A DNA stretch of 61,382 nt from Candidatus Parcubacteria bacterium (lineage in GTDB: Bacteria; Patescibacteriota; Minisyncoccia; Phycocordibacterales; JAKAEA01): assembly GCA_963806325.1 (NCBI GenBank), contig CAWDXL010000006.1, positions 1 to 61,382 of the forward strand, given 5' to 3'. Below are positions 2,325 through 61,382 of the stretch, piece after piece (position 1 is the stretch's first letter; the number at the start of each line of letters is the position of its first letter). Made by a program: the position numbers and the translations under genes. The notes beneath the pieces were generated by a model. That model was not told where the DNA came from, made no database searches, and saw nothing but the letters and a program-made list of their open reading frames with translations.

Positions 2325-3131
2325 ATGAATACAACGAGCGAAAAGATTAATACTGACCTATCTATGAAGAAGAGTATTAAAAACTTAAAACCGTCTGATG
2401 ATTTTATCAACAGAATTATCTGTGGCAGTGCTGTTGATGTTATGAAGCAAATGCCTGACGCATCTGTTGATTTGATTATCACTTCACCCCCCTATAACCT
2501 AAAAAACTCTACTGGTAATGGCATGAAAGACGGAAGGGGTGGCAAGTGGGCCAACGCAGCCCTCCAGAAGGGTTATAGCCACCACAACGACTGTATGCCT
2601 CACGACGAGTATGTTAAATGGCAAAGGGACTGTCTAACGGAAATGATGCGTCTTATTCCTAATAATGGTGCTATCTTCTACAACCACAAATGGCGTGTTC
2701 AAGGCGGCCTGTTACAAGACCGACAAGATATTGTGAATGGATTCCCTGTTAGACAGATTATCATCTGGAGGCGAAAGGGGGGTTTCAACTTTAACGCAGG
2801 ATACTTTGTGCCAACGTATGAAGTAATTTATTTAATTGCCAAACCAGAGTTTAAGTTGGTACCAAAGGCCAATGGCCATGGAGATGTTTGGGAATTTACT
2901 CAAGAGATGAATAATGAGCATCCTGCTGCTTTTCCTGTAGATTTAATTGATAGAATTGTCGGGTCAACTCATGCCAAAACCATTCTCGATCCATTCATGG
3001 GTTCCGGTACTACTGCGCTCTCGGCAATAAATTTTCAAAGAAATTATATTGGTATAGATATTTCTCCTGAATACTGTACTATGGCTGAGAAAAGAATTGA
3101 AGAACATAAGGCGCAGAATAAATTCTGGTAA
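2325..3131 (+). CDS. Beta-class N4-C/N6-A DNA methyltransferase (type II R-M)
   Basis: Catalytic TSPPY motif precedes the SAM-binding DPFMGSGTT motif; HPAAFP motif present. Confidence 0.92.
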   Translation: MNTTSEKINTDLSMKKSIKNLKPSDDFINRIICGSAVDVMKQMPDASVDLIITSPPYNLKNSTGNGMKDGRGGKWANAALQKGYSHHNDCMPHDEYVKWQRDCLTEMMRLIPNNGAIFYNHKWRVQGGLLQDRQDIVNGFPVRQIIIWRRKGGFNFNAGYFVPTYEVIYLIAKPEFKLVPKANGHGDVWEFTQEMNNEHPAAFPVDLIDRIVGSTHAKTILDPFMGSGTTALSAINFQRNYIGIDISPEYCTMAEKRIEEHKAQNKFW

Positions 3132-3135
3132 AACC

Positions 3136-3934
3136 ATGCAAAATGAACCTATAATCTACACGAAACAAGCCCTGATTCAAAAATTTAAGGAAATTGCGAC
3201 AATGGATTGGATTCCTAATGCTCGCCACAAAAATCATGGAGGTGTCGGCAACACACTGGAAGATTTGCTCGGTATAAAAGAAAACAACCTACCTATTCCT
3301 AATGCGGCAGAATGGGAACTTAAAACTCAAAGATTAGGCACAGCTTCGCTAACAACCCTTTTCCATATAGAGCCATCACCTCGAGCAATTGGTTTTATTC
3401 CGAAAGTTTTATTGCCTAAATACGGCTGGCCCCACAAAGAGGGTGGCAAGAAGTATCCAAAAAATGAAATGAGTTTCCGTCAGACTATTCACGGTTTATC
3501 CAGAAGTGACAGAGGGTTTATGGTTAAGATTGATAGAATTGAAAAGAAAATAATAATTTCATTTGATGCTTTGTCGGTTGACGTTAGACATAAAACTTGG
3601 TTGAAAGCTGTAAAAACAAAAGTAGGTTTAGGGGAGTTAAACCCACAACCTTATTGGGGTTTTGATGATTCTTGAACATAAGGCTGGAACAAAATTGCTC
3701 AACTGTTTTTATGTACAAGCAGAAGTGAAAAAGGTGCGAGGTAAAGAATTCTATAAATATACAAAAGTGATGATGCTCCAAAAGTTTAATTTTGAAGGAT
3801 TTTTGAAAGGATTAGAAGAAGCAAAAGTGCTCGTAGATTTTGATGCACGGACGGGTCATAATCACGGTACAAAATTTCGAATGAGAGAGGACGCGTTGCC
3901 AATGCTCTACGATAAAATAACTGTAATTATGTAA
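3136..3934 (+). CDS. MvaI/BcnI-family restriction endonuclease (one frameshift near 3665)
   Basis: GVGNTLEDLLGIKENN...WELKTQR and the C-terminal HNHGTKFR motif; directly follows the methyltransferase; ORFs 3097-3675 and 3662-3934 join as YWGFDD/LEHKAG. Confidence 0.85.
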
Positions 3935-3978: not shown

Positions 3979-4008
3979 TTGCTATCAGATAGCGCTGGGG
4001 TATACAAT
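3979..4008 (+). promoter_or_regulatory. Putative sigma70 promoter for the B12 operon
   Basis: TTGCTA (3979-3984), 18 nt, TACAAT (4003-4008), ending just before the riboswitch. Confidence 0.5.
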
Positions 4009-4014
4009 CCTGCT

Positions 4015-4175
4015 ACGGTTATTTGTCGAGCGAATGCTCGGGTCCATGAAAATGGACTGGAAGTAAGGTTAAATTCCTTCACTGTGCCGCAACGGTAACG
4101 TTCCGCGATCGCAAGAGCGAATTGCGGAAACAAGTCCGGTCAGCAAATAGCCTCATCCCGAGCAGGAAATGGATC
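4015..4175 (+). promoter_or_regulatory. Cobalamin (B12) riboswitch
   Basis: Core GGAAGTAAGGTTAAATTCCTTCACTGTGCCGCAACGGTAA (4059-4098) and AAGTCCGG (4132-4139) resemble the conserved cobalamin-riboswitch blocks; closing helix GGTTATTTG (4017-4025)/CAAATAGCC (4144-4152); lies upstream of DUF4430 genes. Confidence 0.85.
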
Positions 4176-4206
4176 ATGTGTCTATTTTTATATCGTTGTA
4201 TCAACG

Positions 4207-4232
4207 AACCCTGCTCGGCAGAGGTTTTTTTA
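4207..4232 (+). terminator. Riboswitch-controlled intrinsic terminator (expression platform)
   Basis: CCCTGC-TCG-GCAG(A)GG hairpin followed by a T run, 7 nt before the ATG at 4239. Confidence 0.75.
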
Positions 4233-4238
4233 TTTTAT

Positions 4239-4814
4239 ATGAACAAAAAAATACTATATATAAGTGTCGTTGCGCTTGTGATACTTGCTGCTGCGGGAAT
4301 ATTTCTTGATAGCCACAGGGAATATCCACAGTCTGCGACGCAACAGGAGGCGATCAGTACGGCGGTTTCGGTAAATACTGGATCAACAGCATCTACAACT
4401 GCTATTTCTGAACAAAATACTTCTGGGAATCTAAAAACTCAGAGCAAAAATCAAACGCTTGCTCAGGAATCAACGCAAACATCCACCACTTCCTCGACTA
4501 CCGTTTCATCTGGCGAAAATACACATCAAATTCAAATCAGTTTTGTGGCGGGAAGCACGACATATGCCGAAAGTGTTCCTCAAGGATCGACCGCATACGA
4601 CGCGATGGCCATTCTTGCTTCAACCACACCCTCTTTTAATTTTAAAGCCGCATATTATTCAGGACTCGGTTATTTTGTTCAGGAAATTAACGGCATCAAA
4701 AATAGCAGCAGCATGTATTGGACGCTCTACATAAATGGAGCGTATTCGACGGTTGGCGCGTCGAGCTACGTGGTAAAAAATGGCGATACGGTAGAGTGGA
4801 GATTTGAAAAGTAG
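4239..4814 (+). CDS. Membrane-anchored DUF4430 (transcobalamin C-terminal-like) protein
   Basis: N-terminal TM helix, Thr/Ser-rich stalk, then STAYDAM...GYFVQEINGIKNSSSMYWTLYINGAYSTVGASSYVVKNGDTVEWRFE, the typical DUF4430 signature. Confidence 0.85.
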   Translation: MNKKILYISVVALVILAAAGIFLDSHREYPQSATQQEAISTAVSVNTGSTASTTAISEQNTSGNLKTQSKNQTLAQESTQTSTTSSTTVSSGENTHQIQISFVAGSTTYAESVPQGSTAYDAMAILASTTPSFNFKAAYYSGLGYFVQEINGIKNSSSMYWTLYINGAYSTVGASSYVVKNGDTVEWRFEK

Positions 4815-4845
4815 CAGGTATTAATCATTCAGGCTAACAGATTAT

Positions 4846-7170
4846 ATGAAAACACATCACATGAGAATAAAATTGATGGCAGGCAGTGCAGCTATTGTTT
4901 TAATGGCTTCAATAAACATTTTTTTGCCATTCATGCATGTGTCTGCCGATGATGCGACAACTACAGCAACGACAGCAACTACAACTATTACAGATTCTGG
5001 TGCGTCTGCTACTACGACGAGTCCAATAATTCCAGTAGATAGTGCAACAACTACCCCAGCTTTGGTTTTGGGAACAACTACCATTCCAGCTATTGCGACT
5101 ACAACGCCAGCTATTGATATAAGCACGACTACTGCGACAACTACGCTGTCTCTTGCGCCGGTTGTTGCGGCTTTTGTGAGTCCGCAAGATGTGTCTACGA
5201 GCACACCAACGACTACGCCTGTGACAAATACAGTGACTTTGAATGTCCGCTACCAGGATTCCGTTGTATTTTCCGGAACAGTGCTTCTGCCTGTTGCCAC
5301 GACCACGACGCTTAATGATTCAACCGGAACACCACACCCTATTTCGTCAGATAGTGCTCTCTATCTCTTGTCGCAAGCCGCAGCGTCCTCTACTGTATTT
5401 TCTCTAAGCGATCTTGATTATTATTCCTCCTTTGGCGAATTTTATGTCAATTGTCTTGATATAAATGCAACACCTGCAATCGCATCATCGACGGTTCATG
5501 CTTGTGCTGATTGGCAGTATGCAGTAAATAATTCCAATCCATCTGAAGGTTCTGATCAATATATAGCTGCGCCAAACGACGATATCTATTTCTACTACGG
5601 CAATCAGCGGCAATTTTCAGTTTCAGCGACGAGTACCGATACGGTGACACCGGTTACTGTCACGGCTCAAAAATATGATTATACAAACAATACATGGGTA
5701 CCACTTGCCGGAGAAGTTGTAGGCGCGACACAGCCAGATCCAAGTAATCCATGGAGCCCTCTTGTCGTGGCCACCTCAACAACCAATGCGAATGGGACAA
5801 CCACTCTCCTTATGACTGACGCCGGCGTCTACGATATCGGGCTTTCTGATGACGGTTATTATCCAACAGTAGCCGTGACTGTTGCTACTTCAACGGCAAC
5901 AACAACATTGCCAGTCGGTACATCTGGGGGTGGAGGAGGCGGCTCGACCCAATCATTATTTAATGTTTCGCAAGCACTCAGCTATCTCGCGTCAAAACAA
6001 AATGCCAACGGTTCGTTTGACGGCAGTCTCTACACCGATTGGGCGGCAATCGCGCTTGCTGCCGGCCCTCAAAGCCAGAGCAGGAGTGAAATTACAAATT
6101 ACGAGCAGTCGGCGCCAAACACAGCAGTGAGTGCGACAGATTATGAACGTCACGCAATGGCCCTTGAGGCACTCGGGATAAATCCATACACTGGAACATC
6201 TGTTAATTACATCCAAGGAATCGTCAATGATTTTGACGGCACTCAAATAGGCGATCCATCGCTCGTCAATGACGATATTTTCGCGATATTTCCCCTCCTT
6301 AAAGCTGGCTATACAATCTCCGATCCTATTATTTCAAAAGATATTCAATTTATTATTTCGCAGCAATCCGGAAATGGCTCGTGGGGAAGCATCGATCTCA
6401 CTGCTGCTGCAATTCAGGCACTGTCACAGGTGCAGTCTCTAAATGGCGTCTCTGTGGCAATGGGTAGAGCAGAAAATTATTTAAAAAGTTCGGAGACAGG
6501 CGGCGGTTTTGGTACAAGCTATGCTACAAGCTGGGCTCTCCAGGCTATTGCCGCGCTCGGCCAAAGTCCATCGCAGTGGCAGCAAGGAAGCGTCACACCG
6601 CTTTCATATCTTGCGGGGTATCAGCAGACGGACGGCGGTGTGGAGGTGAGCACGACGCCGGATGATAGCAGGGTGTGGGCGACGTCATACGCGATTCCCG
6701 CAGCACTTGGCGAATCATGGCCGGCAATGCTATCTTCATTTCCTAAATCAACTTCTTCATCAGGATCTTCCGGCAGCAGTTCGGGAACAAGTGGAACGAC
6801 AAGCACATCAACTCCGGCTGTTGTTGCAACATCTACAGTATCAACAACAAATAATGATGCCACCTCAACCCTCGCTGTGGCGCCGCGATCTCCCGTATTG
6901 CCACTGTTCGCCGGTACCCCAATAAAATTTGCGGTTAAAAATTTTCAGCATAAAAATAGTGTGTCAAAAATAACCGCTGCCAGCACATCTTCAAGTACGG
7001 CAGCAGTTAAGAGCAGTAATCAAAATTCGTCATCAACAACACCTCTTTCAAATATTGCTGCTGCTGGAGCGAGCGGGCAGGGAATTCCGTTTAAAGACAT
7101 CTCGATTGTCGGTGGAATTTCAGTGGTAGTCGCGGGGGCTTTCTATATTTATAAAATGAAATATAATTAA
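4846..7170 (+). CDS. Large surface protein: signal/TM, Thr-rich linker, DUF4430-like domain, Ig-like domain, prenyltransferase/squalene-oxidase alpha-alpha toroid, C-terminal TM anchor
   Basis: FGEFYVNCL...WQYAVNNSNPSEGSDQY...DDIYFYY (DUF4430-like); repeated QW-like motifs YLASKQNANGSF, ISQQSGNGSWG, AGYQQTDGG; C-terminal hydrophobic helix with basic tail. Confidence 0.75.
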   Translation: MKTHHMRIKLMAGSAAIVLMASINIFLPFMHVSADDATTTATTATTTITDSGASATTTSPIIPVDSATTTPALVLGTTTIPAIATTTPAIDISTTTATTTLSLAPVVAAFVSPQDVSTSTPTTTPVTNTVTLNVRYQDSVVFSGTVLLPVATTTTLNDSTGTPHPISSDSALYLLSQAAASSTVFSLSDLDYYSSFGEFYVNCLDINATPAIASSTVHACADWQYAVNNSNPSEGSDQYIAAPNDDIYFYYGNQRQFSVSATSTDTVTPVTVTAQKYDYTNNTWVPLAGEVVGATQPDPSNPWSPLVVATSTTNANGTTTLLMTDAGVYDIGLSDDGYYPTVAVTVATSTATTTLPVGTSGGGGGGSTQSLFNVSQALSYLASKQNANGSFDGSLYTDWAAIALAAGPQSQSRSEITNYEQSAPNTAVSATDYERHAMALEALGINPYTGTSVNYIQGIVNDFDGTQIGDPSLVNDDIFAIFPLLKAGYTISDPIISKDIQFIISQQSGNGSWGSIDLTAAAIQALSQVQSLNGVSVAMGRAENYLKSSETGGGFGTSYATSWALQAIAALGQSPSQWQQGSVTPLSYLAGYQQTDGGVEVSTTPDDSRVWATSYAIPAALGESWPAMLSSFPKSTSSSGSSGSSSGTSGTTSTSTPAVVATSTVSTTNNDATSTLAVAPRSPVLPLFAGTPIKFAVKNFQHKNSVSKITAASTSSSTAAVKSSNQNSSSTTPLSNIAAAGASGQGIPFKDISIVGGISVVVAGAFYIYKMKYN

Positions 7171-7183
7171 CTATCCAATATAT

Positions 7184-7756
7184 ATGTCCGTAAAAAAATC
7201 TCTCATCATTTCATTTCTTTTGGTTGTCGTCGGAGTCGCAGGGCGCTTTCTTCCGCATCTTCCAAACGCTACGCCAATCACAGCCATCGCGCTCTTTTCG
7301 GCAACATACCTAGGCCTCCGCTATTCGTGGTCTATTCTCATTGTGACTATGCTTATTACCGACGCATTTATCGGTTTCTATGATTGGAAAGTCATGGCCG
7401 CTGTCTACGGAAGCCTTATTTTGAGCGCTATAATCGGCTTATTGGTCAGGAAATATAAAACAGCAGGAACAAAGATAGTATTTGCCGGCAGTGTATTTTT
7501 TGGCACACTCGCTTCATCATTATTATTCTTTCTCATCACCAATTGGGCTGTCTGGCAGTTTGGAATGATGTATGTTCATTCATGGCAAGGTCTCATGGAA
7601 TCGTATGCGATGGCTATTCCATTCTTTAAAAATTCTCTTCTTGGCGACCTCACGTACACCGCTACGCTCTTCGGTGCATTTGAAACAGCTCGCTACGCGG
7701 TCTCTCAGAAAATAAAAATCCGCAGCGCTGTGCGGTCATTGAAAAATCAGTTCTAA
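7184..7756 (+). CDS. DUF6580-like integral membrane protein, putative ECF-type S-component (B12 uptake candidate)
   Basis: About six hydrophobic segments; RFLPHLPNATPITAIALF, SSLLFFLITNWAVW and YAMAIPFFKNSLLGDL motifs; last gene of the riboswitch operon. Confidence 0.7.
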   Translation: MSVKKSLIISFLLVVVGVAGRFLPHLPNATPITAIALFSATYLGLRYSWSILIVTMLITDAFIGFYDWKVMAAVYGSLILSAIIGLLVRKYKTAGTKIVFAGSVFFGTLASSLLFFLITNWAVWQFGMMYVHSWQGLMESYAMAIPFFKNSLLGDLTYTATLFGAFETARYAVSQKIKIRSAVRSLKNQF

Positions 7757-7801
7757 TAACAGAACATTTGAAATAAAATCGTTTTTGCTTTACACTTGAG
7801 T

Positions 7802-8320
7802 ATGGCAAAAATAACTATCTTTGGACTAGCAGGGACGGGGACAACAACGCTCGGCAAGATGCTTGCTAAAAAGCTTGAGTGTGAATTTGTGTCGACGGGC
7901 AAGATATTCCGTGCAAAAGCAGCGTCGCTCAGCCTCGATCTCTATCAGTTTGAAAAGCTATGTAATGAAGATTATAGCTACGATCGGGCTATTGAAGATG
8001 AAATTGGCTTATATGGCAAACAGCACGACAATTTTGTTCTAGAAAGCCGGCTTGGGTGGTATTCAATCCCAGATTCTTTTAAGATAAAAGTGATTTGTGA
8101 TTTTGAAACTCGTATCAAGCGTGTGGCTGATCGTGACAATATTCCGTACAAGGAAGCGGAGGTAAAAACTCTTTTTAGAGAAAATTCGCACATTGAGCGG
8201 TATGCCGCAAATTATGGTATTACCGATTTTGGTGCCGATCATTATTTTGATGTGATTATTGATTCTACTGAAAAAAACCCGGAGCATATGCTGCAGATTG
8301 TGGTTGATTCATTGCGCTAA
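7802..8320 (+). CDS. cmk: Cytidylate kinase, archaeal-type (AAA family)
   Basis: GLAGTGTTT P-loop, STGKIFR, DRAIED, ESRLG and RIKRVADRD motifs; own promoter-like TTGAAA-17-TACACT just upstream. Confidence 0.75.
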   Translation: MAKITIFGLAGTGTTTLGKMLAKKLECEFVSTGKIFRAKAASLSLDLYQFEKLCNEDYSYDRAIEDEIGLYGKQHDNFVLESRLGWYSIPDSFKIKVICDFETRIKRVADRDNIPYKEAEVKTLFRENSHIERYAANYGITDFGADHYFDVIIDSTEKNPEHMLQIVVDSLR

Positions 8321-8864: not shown

Positions 8865-10064
8865 GTGGGAGAAATAAATAAGCGTAATAGACGGATTTTG
8901 ATACTTGTTTTTATGTGTATCGGTATTTTTGCAGCGGTGAATATTATTATCGGGATTGTTAAGAAAACATTCGACAGTTCTTCGTCAATGCAGCGATATG
9001 GCCAAAATAATTTTCCACAATCAGCGGTGTTTTGGCCGGAACACAACAACGAAAATCTTCTCTCGCTTATTATTGAGCCTCGCGACGGTATTGCGCCTGT
9101 GCTCTCGTTGATACAACGTGCTTCTACATCAATTGATCTTGTGATGTACGAGCTTGATGATGCACAGATAGAACAGGCACTGGCTCGTGCACAGTCGCGC
9201 GGCGTGGCTGTGCGGGTCATTCTTAACCAGGGTTATTACGGACAAACAGCTTCTAATAATTCTGCTTTTTCAAATCAATCGGCGTATGAATATCTGAAAG
9301 ATCATAACGTGTCTGTTGAGTGGGCACCCTCTTACTTTGTTTTGACGCATCAGAAGTCTCTCGTTGTCGACAGCGCTCAGCTGCTCGTTATGACATTCAA
9401 TATGACGCCGAAATATTATCCTTCGGCCCGGGACTTTGGTATTGTCGACCAGGATCACCTTGATGTATCGGCTGCCGATCTCATTGATGCCGACTGGCAG
9501 GAAAGCTCCGCATCTCCATCGCCTGCATTACAAGGGGATAATCTTATTTGGAGTCCTGGTTCGGAAAATGAAATGCTTTACCTTATTGAAAATGCCACCT
9601 CCTCGCTCTCTATTTATAATGAAGAAATAAATGATCCTGCACTTGTGAATGCACTTGAGCTGGCTGCAGAGCGCGGAGTGGATGTAAAAGTTGATATGAC
9701 GTATGAGACCGCTTGGAAACCTATATTTATCGAGCTCGTCTCCGCTGGTGTGCATGTGCGCACGTATGCCGCCCATGCATCAATCTATATCCACGCCAAA
9801 ATGATCATTGTTGATAATTCAGCAGCATTTATCGGTTCGGAAAATTTTTCTGCTTCGTCGCTCGACGACAATCGCGAGCTTGGTATTGTGTTTGATGATC
9901 AAAAAATCATTGATTCTCTAAAATCTGTTTTTGATGCCGACTGGCAAAAAGCGGAGAGTGTTCGTTGGTACATAAAACTATTTCCAGCCTACCCAGCGGT
10001 CTATTTCTGGCTATTGTTTTTTATGAGTTCTTCGTCAATTCGGCGCGGCGCATCAGCAGGATGA
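8865..10064 (+). CDS. Membrane-anchored phospholipase D-family protein (true 3' end may be near 9975)
   Basis: Two HKD motifs (HQKSLVVD, HAKMIIVD), GSENFS and NRELG; N-terminal TM. The C-terminal tail overlaps the convergent gene. Confidence 0.85.
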   Translation: MGEINKRNRRILILVFMCIGIFAAVNIIIGIVKKTFDSSSSMQRYGQNNFPQSAVFWPEHNNENLLSLIIEPRDGIAPVLSLIQRASTSIDLVMYELDDAQIEQALARAQSRGVAVRVILNQGYYGQTASNNSAFSNQSAYEYLKDHNVSVEWAPSYFVLTHQKSLVVDSAQLLVMTFNMTPKYYPSARDFGIVDQDHLDVSAADLIDADWQESSASPSPALQGDNLIWSPGSENEMLYLIENATSSLSIYNEEINDPALVNALELAAERGVDVKVDMTYETAWKPIFIELVSAGVHVRTYAAHASIYIHAKMIIVDNSAAFIGSENFSASSLDDNRELGIVFDDQKIIDSLKSVFDADWQKAESVRWYIKLFPAYPAVYFWLLFFMSSSSIRRGASAG

Positions 10065-58517: not shown

Positions 58518-58869
58518 GGCTCTTATCCCTGAAATTATGTTAAACACACTAAATCACAAGCGGATATAGCAAGCTTCTCTATAAAAAAGGCTTACTACTC
58601 CGCGCAAGCGGTTTTTTGTTTTAATTTCAGACCGACCGTAACTTAAAAATATCCTCGCAGTCTCGATTTTCGTCGGACTGCATTAGAAGGATCATTCTGT
58701 CGCAGCACACAAAACTTTTTTCTGGACTAATAAATGGTTCAGAGAGGGTCTTTTCAAGTGTTGCAGACAGAGTAGGTAAACAAACAAAAACAATAAATTG
58801 TTATATGTTAGAAAATGGATTCTATGTAACAGAGTAAAACGATATGTGGTTCTTACATTTCCTAATAGG

Positions 58870-61382
<2,513 letters not shown>

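Follow-up and report, generated by a model that had tools for sequence, protein, structure and literature searches.

The window analyzed here is a 61,382-nucleotide (nt) stretch of DNA from a Candidatus Parcubacteria bacterium (positions 1–61,382 of the forward strand of contig CAWDXL010000006.1, assembly GCA_963806325.1), and near its start lie three co-oriented open reading frames (ORFs), designated g1, g2, and g3, which follow a structured leader of 230 nt on the + strand. Leader and genes are interpreted as a cobalamin riboswitch-controlled operon for the capture and import of vitamin B12, a reading to which a probability of roughly 80% is assigned. It draws on a conserved riboswitch, on domain and fold assignments, on the joint conservation of the genes, on the absence of energy-coupling factor (ECF) and BtuCD machinery, and on a link with class II ribonucleotide reductase (RNR), the adenosyltransferase PduO, and DUF4430 proteins.

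The first gene, g1 (positions 4239–4814, + strand), encodes a 191-residue protein with a transmembrane (TM) anchor, a Ser/Thr-rich stalk, and a DUF4430 domain. It is followed after 31 nt by g2 (4846–7170, +), which encodes a 774-residue protein with a DUF4430-like domain, an Ig-like domain, and an alpha/alpha toroid, and after a further gap of 13 nt by g3 (7184–7756, +), which encodes a 190-residue, six-TM protein of the DUF6580 family. The ATG at 4239 is taken as the start of g1; a longer ORF that begins with TTG at 4122 overlaps the riboswitch. A preliminary description, made from the sequence alone, had claimed a cobalamin riboswitch-like RNA with a terminator, three tightly spaced co-oriented genes for a TM-anchored DUF4430 protein on a Thr-rich stalk, a surface protein of 774 residues that joins a DUF4430-like domain to an alpha-alpha toroid, and a DUF6580-like, S-component-like protein with about six TM segments, and an operon free of BtuCDF, TonB receptor, and ECF A/T genes. 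Each of these claims was borne out by the evidence presented below. The source genome comprises 921 kb in 23 contigs with a GC content of 43% and is 85% complete. The nearest homologues are nearly all from metagenome-assembled genomes of Patescibacteria.

A Putative Divergent Cobalamin Riboswitch in the Leader

No Rfam model matched the leader at gathering thresholds, and a permissive search, genome-wide scans of relatives, and a covariance model of our own were therefore employed. With permissive filters, the AdoCbl-II model RF01689 scored 27.4 bits on 4043–4117 (gathering threshold 36.5), and the Cobalamin model RF00174 scored 22.5 bits, with an E-value of 4.4e-4, on 4006–4162 (gathering threshold 31.5). 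The leader was the sole RF00174 match across the entire genome. The aptamer supported by these two models, our own model, and covariation (4019–4170, +) contains the invariant core CACUGUGCCGCAACGGUAAC at 4080–4099, a B12-box-like element, AAGUCCGGUCAGC, at 4132–4144, and a conserved 3′ box, CCCGAGCAGG, at 4157–4166, all on the + strand. The CUGUGCCGCAACGGUAA core was invariant in the leader alignments.

The comparison set consisted of 80 loci encoding DUF6580 relatives, and for 50 of these RF00174 was run genome-wide. Matches were present in 24 of the 50, mostly as a single match per genome, and 19 of these 24 lay on the strand of the cassette, 0–251 nt ahead of its first gene. Three of the 19 exceeded the gathering score (43 bits at locus L043, 34.1 at L066, and 32.9 at L050). 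The elements at L066 and L050 were also found by R1, our covariance model built from ten cassette leaders, which scored 125.5 bits in the present leader and located the element at 40 of the 80 loci, on the cassette strand every time. The expectation that an Infernal scan with Rfam cobalamin models would recognize this RNA thus held in part: sub-threshold matches to RF01689 and RF00174 were obtained and relatives scored above threshold, but the curated thresholds were not reached here. Indeed, the riboswitch belongs to a divergent subgroup that in Patescibacteria mostly scores 19–34 bits, under the Rfam gathering thresholds.

In an alignment that had been fitted to the model, and was biased toward the structure as a result, 94.6% of cells were paired and 14 of 22 pairs showed compensatory changes, a level that was reached in 0 of 500 shuffles. 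Controls in which the pairing partners were slid along the alignment gave pairing of only 25–48%. Comparison, rather than Rfam thresholds, shows that the leader is a real and conserved, albeit divergent, cobalamin riboswitch. The element was found ahead of 35 of the 39 three-gene cassettes with enough upstream sequence versus 4 of 24 two-gene cassettes. In many cases the two-gene DUF4430-DUF6580 form immediately follows a gene for class II RNR. For three two-gene loci, L015 (genome G013), L016 (G014), and L021 (G018), the sole RF00174 match of the genome lies off the cassette, at distances of ∼37, 3.6, and 9 kb, respectively, if on the same contig.

The expression platform (4150–4231, +) is formed by a hairpin at 4150–4225 with a folding energy of −32.5 kcal/mol (z = −5.33; 0 of 200 shuffles were as stable) and by a U-tract that extends to 4231. 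Within it, the conserved box CCCGAGCAGG pairs with CCUGCUCGG (4210–4218), and the hairpin is closed by GCCUC/GAGGU. A simple terminator scanner gave no call on this hairpin because the loop is long. Hairpin and U-tract together look like an intrinsic terminator.

In the close relatives L008, L003, and L036, the R1 match, which ends just past the 3′ box, stops 1–6 nt before the start codon. At L008, ∼7 nt separate the AGGA of the box from the ATG, which puts it where a ribosome-binding site would lie. In close relatives, the box stands 1–15 nt ahead of the start codon and carries the Shine-Dalgarno sequence. One box therefore probably serves translational control in the close relatives and termination in the present leader.

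Association of the Cassette with B12-dependent Enzymes

To our knowledge, Patescibacteria are unable to make B12, and many rely on a B12-dependent RNR for all of their DNA precursors. In a sample of 401 genomes drawn evenly from the phylum, DUF6580 was detected in 94 and a class II RNR match in 154. As the preliminary description had anticipated, the two co-occurred: class II RNR was found in 66 of the 94 genomes with DUF6580 (70%) versus 88 of the 307 without it (29%), which corresponds to an odds ratio of 5.9 (Fisher p ∼1e-12) on counts that are not corrected for phylogeny. The control genomes that were positive with the class II RNR model were only those of organisms that we take to be class II RNR carriers.

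The association extends to gene order. DUF6580 and RNR lie within ∼6 kb of each other on the same strand in at least ∼33 genomes, as judged from the listed coordinates, and no family is found more often as the immediate upstream neighbor of the cassette than RNR domains; two genes for B12-binding radical SAM proteins also occur in this place. A relative from the same order (G387) has the gene order RTPR, PduO adenosyltransferase, DUF4430, and DUF6580, and in G103 DUF6580 immediately follows RNR. DUF6580, RTPR, and PduO are also side by side in G259, G450, G190, G315, and G054. The source genome itself encodes a PduO-type adenosyltransferase on contig C16. The RTPR reductase is likely to be the consumer of the imported B12.

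Fold of g3 and Search for Conventional B12 Importers

The g3 protein matched PF20221 (DUF6580) with 139 bits. Its AlphaFold2 (AF2) model (pLDDT 92.1 and pTM 0.84) gave TM-scores of 0.63 with BioY (4dve), 0.64/0.68 with ThiT (3rlb), and 0.58/0.66 with 4huq_S, and all other fold matches fell below 0.35. When a profile of 31 DUF6580 proteins was compared with the PDB, a single sequence was matched, 6fnp_A (E-value 4e-4, residues 6–82). The 6FNP entry is the ECF-CbrT B12 transporter, and the chain length of 182 residues points to 6fnp_A being CbrT. Scattered members of the family additionally gave weak matches to the ECF S-component families PF12822 and PF07155. The model assigns g3 the six-TM ECF S-component fold, and the protein is predicted to be a module-independent B12 translocator. 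The DUF6580 family comprises 5,913 clusters at 50% identity and was not mentioned in any paper of the literature searched.

DUF6580 is rare in the class to which the source organism belongs, being present in 4 of the 24 genomes sampled there, the source genome among them, versus 90 of 377 in the rest of the phylum. The closest relatives of g3 carry the labels Paceibacterota or Liptonbacteria, a hint that the gene may have been acquired horizontally.

That transport by g3 is a prediction from fold and context leaves room for an operon that is B12-related but in which DUF6580 serves as a membrane dock or receptor, or as a carrier of cobinamide, of a lower ligand, or of another cobamide, with B12 itself entering the cell by another route. 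The similarity of g3 to CbrT is weak, CbrT itself also carries cobinamide (PMC5997447), and 28 of the 94 DUF6580 genomes gave no class II RNR match. Such an arrangement is nonetheless judged unlikely: the S-component fold is a transporter fold, the cassette is tied to RTPR and PduO, both of which need the complete cofactor, and no other candidate importer was found in these genomes of 0.6–1.7 Mb.

The last point follows from a search for conventional importers. BtuCDF, TonB receptor, and ECF A/T genes are absent from the operon, and neither CbiQ/EcfT nor FecCD/BtuC was found in the 85%-complete genome as a whole. CbiQ/EcfT was also absent from 79 of the 80 DUF6580 genomes, which are mostly 95–100% complete, and FecCD/BtuC was clear in just 1 of the 80. 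Of 14 control genomes, 11 were positive in the same CbiQ/EcfT search. No ABC-type ATPase or other conserved partner flanked the cassette at the 80 loci, generic ABC ATPases not having been surveyed genome-wide.

These results bear on a second alternative, in which DUF6580 would be an ordinary rather than a solitary S-component, energized by a divergent module of ABC ATPase and scaffold that is encoded elsewhere. The closest solved sequence relative of the family belongs to the ECF-CbrT entry, CbrT requires the ECF module, proteins of the candidate phyla radiation (CPR) have often diverged beyond the reach of Pfam models, and the survey of ABC ATPases covered the genes that flank the cassette. 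Against this stand the absence of CbiQ/EcfT from nearly all of these largely complete genomes, when most controls were positive, and the lack of any ATPase conserved beside the cassette, and the alternative is considered improbable. The preferred reading remains that g3 acts as a B12 translocator without an ECF module.

Domain Structure of the Predicted Surface Proteins g1 and g2

The DUF4430 domain of g1 matched PF14478 with 56.4 bits (cut-off 23.8), and the C terminus of the protein aligned with the beta domain of human transcobalamin-1, PDB entry 4kki (phmmer E-value 0.017). A TM segment spans residues 1–26, and Ser and Thr account for 40–53% of the stretch 31–95. These features suggest that g1 is a tethered extracellular B12 binder with a single transcobalamin beta-type (SLBB/DUF4430) domain.

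A g1-like gene was located directly upstream of DUF6580 at 69 of the 80 loci, the combination of g1, g2, and g3 being present at 43 and that of g1 and g3 at 26. In P0299, one representative of the family, DUF6580 is naturally fused through an extra TM helix to DUF4430, and this helix places DUF4430 outside the cell, as in g1. The fusion would support physical contact between DUF4430 and DUF6580. In a second database protein, P0241 (372 residues), the C-terminal part of a toroid protein resembling g2, with its Ser/Thr stalk, is joined in frame to a DUF6580 domain; it could be either a real g2-g3 fusion or an artefact of gene calling or a frameshift.

Inspection of the g2 sequence reveals a signal or TM segment at residues 8–34, Ser/Thr-rich stretches at 35–135 and 631–750, and a C-terminal TM segment at 751–770. 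The AF2 model of residues 130–660, based on an alignment of 54 sequences and with a pLDDT of 90.3, is made up of a beta-grasp domain, an Ig-like sandwich, a linker rich in Gly, and an alpha/alpha toroid of 12 helices. The DUF4430-like domain occupies residues ∼130–252, with an invariant cysteine pair (C203/C220), and is followed by the Ig-like domain (∼255–348), a Gly6 linker, and the toroid (∼370–630). The Pfam score of g2 for DUF4430 is 21.9–22.7 bits, just under the cut-off of 23.8. In the model of the beta-grasp domain, a helix (42–52) precedes a hairpin (56–77), and it is by a hairpin in this place that the transcobalamin-like SLBB clade is recognized (PMC1796856).

The toroid gave a squalene-cyclase repeat match. 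Foldseek searches with the g2 model retrieved squalene-hopene cyclases, complement and alpha2-macroglobulin TED domains, and drimenyl-diphosphate synthases. They also retrieved transcobalamin (2bb6, E-value 4.6e-6) and intrinsic factor (3kq4, TM-score 0.49), both significant with E-values of ∼1e-5. Among the 54 g2 homologues, Pfam matches were obtained to SQHop_cyclase_C in 53, DUF4430 in 45, Cobalamin_bind (PF01122) in 41, and TED_complement in 30; g2 itself, unlike those 41 homologues, gave no PF01122 match. In view of these mixed matches, the toroid is best regarded as a generic member of its superfamily, and its pairing with a DUF4430 domain would be the specific feature. The models point to g2 being a surface B12 binder in which the transcobalamin domain set occurs in reversed order.

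Two enzymatic or thioester-based roles for g2 were considered and rejected. The DVDDTA (DxDD) motif of terpene cyclases aligns to SIDLTA in g2, a thioester is impossible because the toroid contains no cysteine, and the protein is in either case extracellular. It is accordingly most improbable that the proteins are unrelated to B12, with g2 being of the terpene cyclase/prenyltransferase or the alpha2-macroglobulin/complement type and the RNA match having arisen by chance: NCBI names such as “prenyltransferase/squalene oxidase repeat” and “terpene cyclase” for the homologues, and squalene-hopene cyclases and TED domains as the best sequence and fold matches of the toroid, are outweighed by the lack of the cyclase motif and of any cysteine in the toroid, by the signal peptide, stalks, and anchor that place g2 outside the cell, by the Cobalamin_bind matches of the homologues, and by a riboswitch whose covariation and position are kept across 40 loci.

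Proposed Mechanism

A scheme that would account for the findings is as follows. When B12 is scarce, the leader would permit transcriptional read-through; binding of cobalamin to the aptamer would release the conserved 3′ box into the terminator hairpin and switch the operon off. In the close relatives, in which the same box holds the Shine-Dalgarno sequence, the operon would likewise be switched off. The g1 and g2 proteins, tethered to the membrane on long Ser/Thr stalks, would bind B12 extracellularly and hand it to g3, which would translocate it with no need of an ECF ATPase/EcfT module. Transport would probably be driven by intracellular trapping, through adenosylation by the PduO-type enzyme and binding to the adenosylcobalamin (AdoCbl)-dependent RTPR.

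Several observations weigh against a B12 import operon. The leader reaches none of the Rfam gathering thresholds, and its matches to RF01689 and RF00174 are both sub-threshold. The Foldseek matches of g3 fall short of significance (E-values of ∼1), and the S-component assignment draws on TM-scores and one weak profile match confined to the first ∼80 residues. In sequence and fold, the toroid of g2 resembles squalene cyclases and complement TED domains no less than it does transcobalamin. The co-occurrence statistic is blind to phylogeny, a sizeable share of the DUF6580 genomes have no class II RNR match, and the neighboring RTPR gene is broken in this assembly. Genes judged absent from the source genome were sought in an assembly that is only 85% complete, and no energy source for transport by g3 was found. 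Finally, we infer rather than observe the binding of B12 by g1 and g2, its hand-off, its translocation by g3, the energetics of this step, and the form of cobalamin that is sensed.

More tentatively, DUF4430 and DUF6580 may together constitute a binding protein-dependent, ATPase-independent importer in which the tethered beta-type domain loads the carrier directly. Such a system might then be the main route of B12 into Patescibacteria and a third family of B12-specific proteins with the S-component fold, beside CbrT and BtuM. The entry of B12 into Patescibacteria was not described in the literature searched, and no paper there combined Patescibacteria, cobalamin, and a riboswitch. The cassette is widespread and not confined to this genome, as the 80 related loci show, and the reading would assign a function to a large uncharacterized membrane protein family. 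It also points to a transport design still to be demonstrated, in which tethered transcobalamin-type binders would feed an S-component-fold carrier without an ECF module.

Neighboring Genes and Other Features of the Window

A promoter-like site, TTGCTA and TACAAT separated by a spacer of 18 nt, is located at 3979–4008 (+), immediately 5′ of the riboswitch. It matched the consensus at 9 of 12 positions in the scan, which on its own is weak evidence.

On the opposite strand, a gene at 3–2114 that is cut by the start of the contig encodes an RNR of the RTPR type, as indicated by TIGR02505 matches on four fragments. The preliminary description had named this neighbor NrdJ; it is indeed a class II RNR, but of the RTPR type rather than the dimeric NrdJ, and it is both truncated by the contig start and interrupted by ∼12 frame changes. 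When compared with the intact orthologue at L003, these frame changes fall within 2.1 kb, with strong protein similarity retained in each piece. Recoding of stop codons (TGA as an amino acid) was rejected as an explanation, since the true frame shifts ∼12 times and takes in all three frames. Most likely, the breaks reflect indel errors where the end of the contig was poorly polished, and the gene itself is not dead. The RTPR orthologue at L002 is likewise split, into three ORFs. No PF02867-type RNR was found in the genome; class III was not searched for.

Between the reductase gene and the riboswitch lies a type II restriction-modification pair, consisting of an N4/N6 DNA methylase (2325–3131) and an endonuclease of the MvaI/BcnI family that is split into two ORFs (3097–3675 and 3662–3934). 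RNR and riboswitch adjoin each other in divergent orientation in the closest relatives, L003 and L008, and because they are direct neighbors there, the restriction-modification pair looks like an insertion. The divergent arrangement of RNR and cassette is found at L002, L003, L004, L007, and L008.

An archaeal-type (d)CMP kinase gene is located on the same strand at 7796–8320, 39 nt 3′ of g3. It was considered as a further member of the system and excluded, since it neighbors the cassette at just 1 of the 80 loci. Further downstream, at 8865–10064, a 399-residue protein with two phospholipase D-like domains is encoded, the best NCBIfam match of which is the DISARM phospholipase D-like protein DrmC (82.7 bits; cut-off 133). 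The far end of the window (58864–61382) is occupied by a 23S rRNA gene that runs off the contig end and covers model positions 1–2069 in 2519 nt, ∼450 nt above the model. Among the insertions are one of ∼40 nt that follows model position 282 and one of ∼21 nt that follows position 312.

Comparison with Known B12 Uptake Systems

CbrT (PMC5997447) and BtuM (PMC6072759) are the two characterized B12-specific proteins with the S-component fold. CbrT of Lactobacillus delbrueckii is encoded in an nrdJ-cbrS-cbrT-pduO cluster and needs EcfA/A′/T and ATP (PMC5997447). In common with the present system, ECF-CbrT (6FNP) includes the S-component fold and the chain, presumably CbrT, that is the sole PDB sequence matched by the DUF6580 profile, and its nrdJ/pduO cluster mirrors the RTPR-PduO-DUF4430-DUF6580 sets of the relatives. 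In contrast to CbrT, which uses the ECF module and ATP, DUF6580 occurs almost throughout in genomes without EcfT, and the sequence similarity is marginal.

BtuM of Thiobacillus denitrificans possesses an invariant and essential cysteine, Cys80, which ligates the cobalt and decyanates B12, and the BtuM family is found mostly in Gram-negative proteobacteria, where it is co-localized with btuB (PMC6072759). Like g3, BtuM is a small solitary protein with the S-component fold that is implicated in B12 uptake without an ECF module. However, g3 contains no cysteine at all and therefore lacks an equivalent of the BtuM-defining Cys80; its partners are tethered transcobalamin-type binders, and the DUF6580 profile gave no sequence match to BtuM in the PDB. 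Lacking both an ECF module and the BtuM cysteine, g3 is neither CbrT nor BtuM.

Capture of B12 at the cell surface ahead of a transporter is also seen in Bacteroides, in which the lipoproteins BtuG, BtuH, and BtuJ bind B12 (PMC8941943 and PMC10404256). These differ from g1 and g2 in that their folds are unrelated and in that they feed a TonB-dependent outer-membrane transporter. An assignment of BtuH to the DUF4430 proteins was rejected, as the paper describes a B12-binding domain without known structural homologues, and BtuH is a functional analogue only. With respect to control, the leader resembles the Rfam families RF00174 and RF01689 (clan CL00101) in its core, its covarying helices, and its place ahead of a B12 transport operon.

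The closest precedent for the capture proteins is the work of Burroughs, Balaji, Iyer, and Aravind in 2007, in which bacterial operons encoding transcobalamin-like SLBB proteins were predicted to scavenge B12 (PMC1796856). The SLBB proteins described there have signal peptides, Ig-like domains, and a toroid fused on either side, and a second SLBB paralogue is present in the operon. The operons also contain CbiO-like ATPase and CbiQ-like membrane genes and occur in Firmicutes, planctomycetes, and some archaea, in organisms without B12 synthesis (PMC1796856). The secreted or anchored DUF4430 proteins, the fusion of SLBB and toroid, the Ig-like domains, the two paralogues, the lack of B12 synthesis, and the predicted role in scavenging are shared with the present operon, which differs in having DUF6580 as the only partner, in its riboswitch control, and in its occurrence in Patescibacteria. 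The view that such a system is uncharacterized in CPR bacteria stands in that no paper on DUF6580 was found in the literature searched, but the idea of capture by two paralogues had already been predicted for Gram-positive bacteria (PMC1796856). What is new is a family with the S-component fold that would operate without an ECF module, together with control by a divergent riboswitch.

The animal carriers transcobalamin, intrinsic factor, and haptocorrin (PF01122 plus DUF4430; 2BB6, 3KQ4, and 4KKI) likewise combine an alpha/alpha toroid with a beta-grasp domain that has a hairpin after the helix. They are soluble, with the toroid preceding the beta domain, whereas in g2 the order is beta domain, Ig-like domain, Gly linker, and toroid, in a protein that is tethered to the membrane on Ser/Thr stalks. 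A reversed order of SLBB domain and toroid is known in bacteria, and the animal B12 carriers have been suggested to derive from bacterial surface B12 scavengers (PMC1796856), a proposal that the operon described here would extend.

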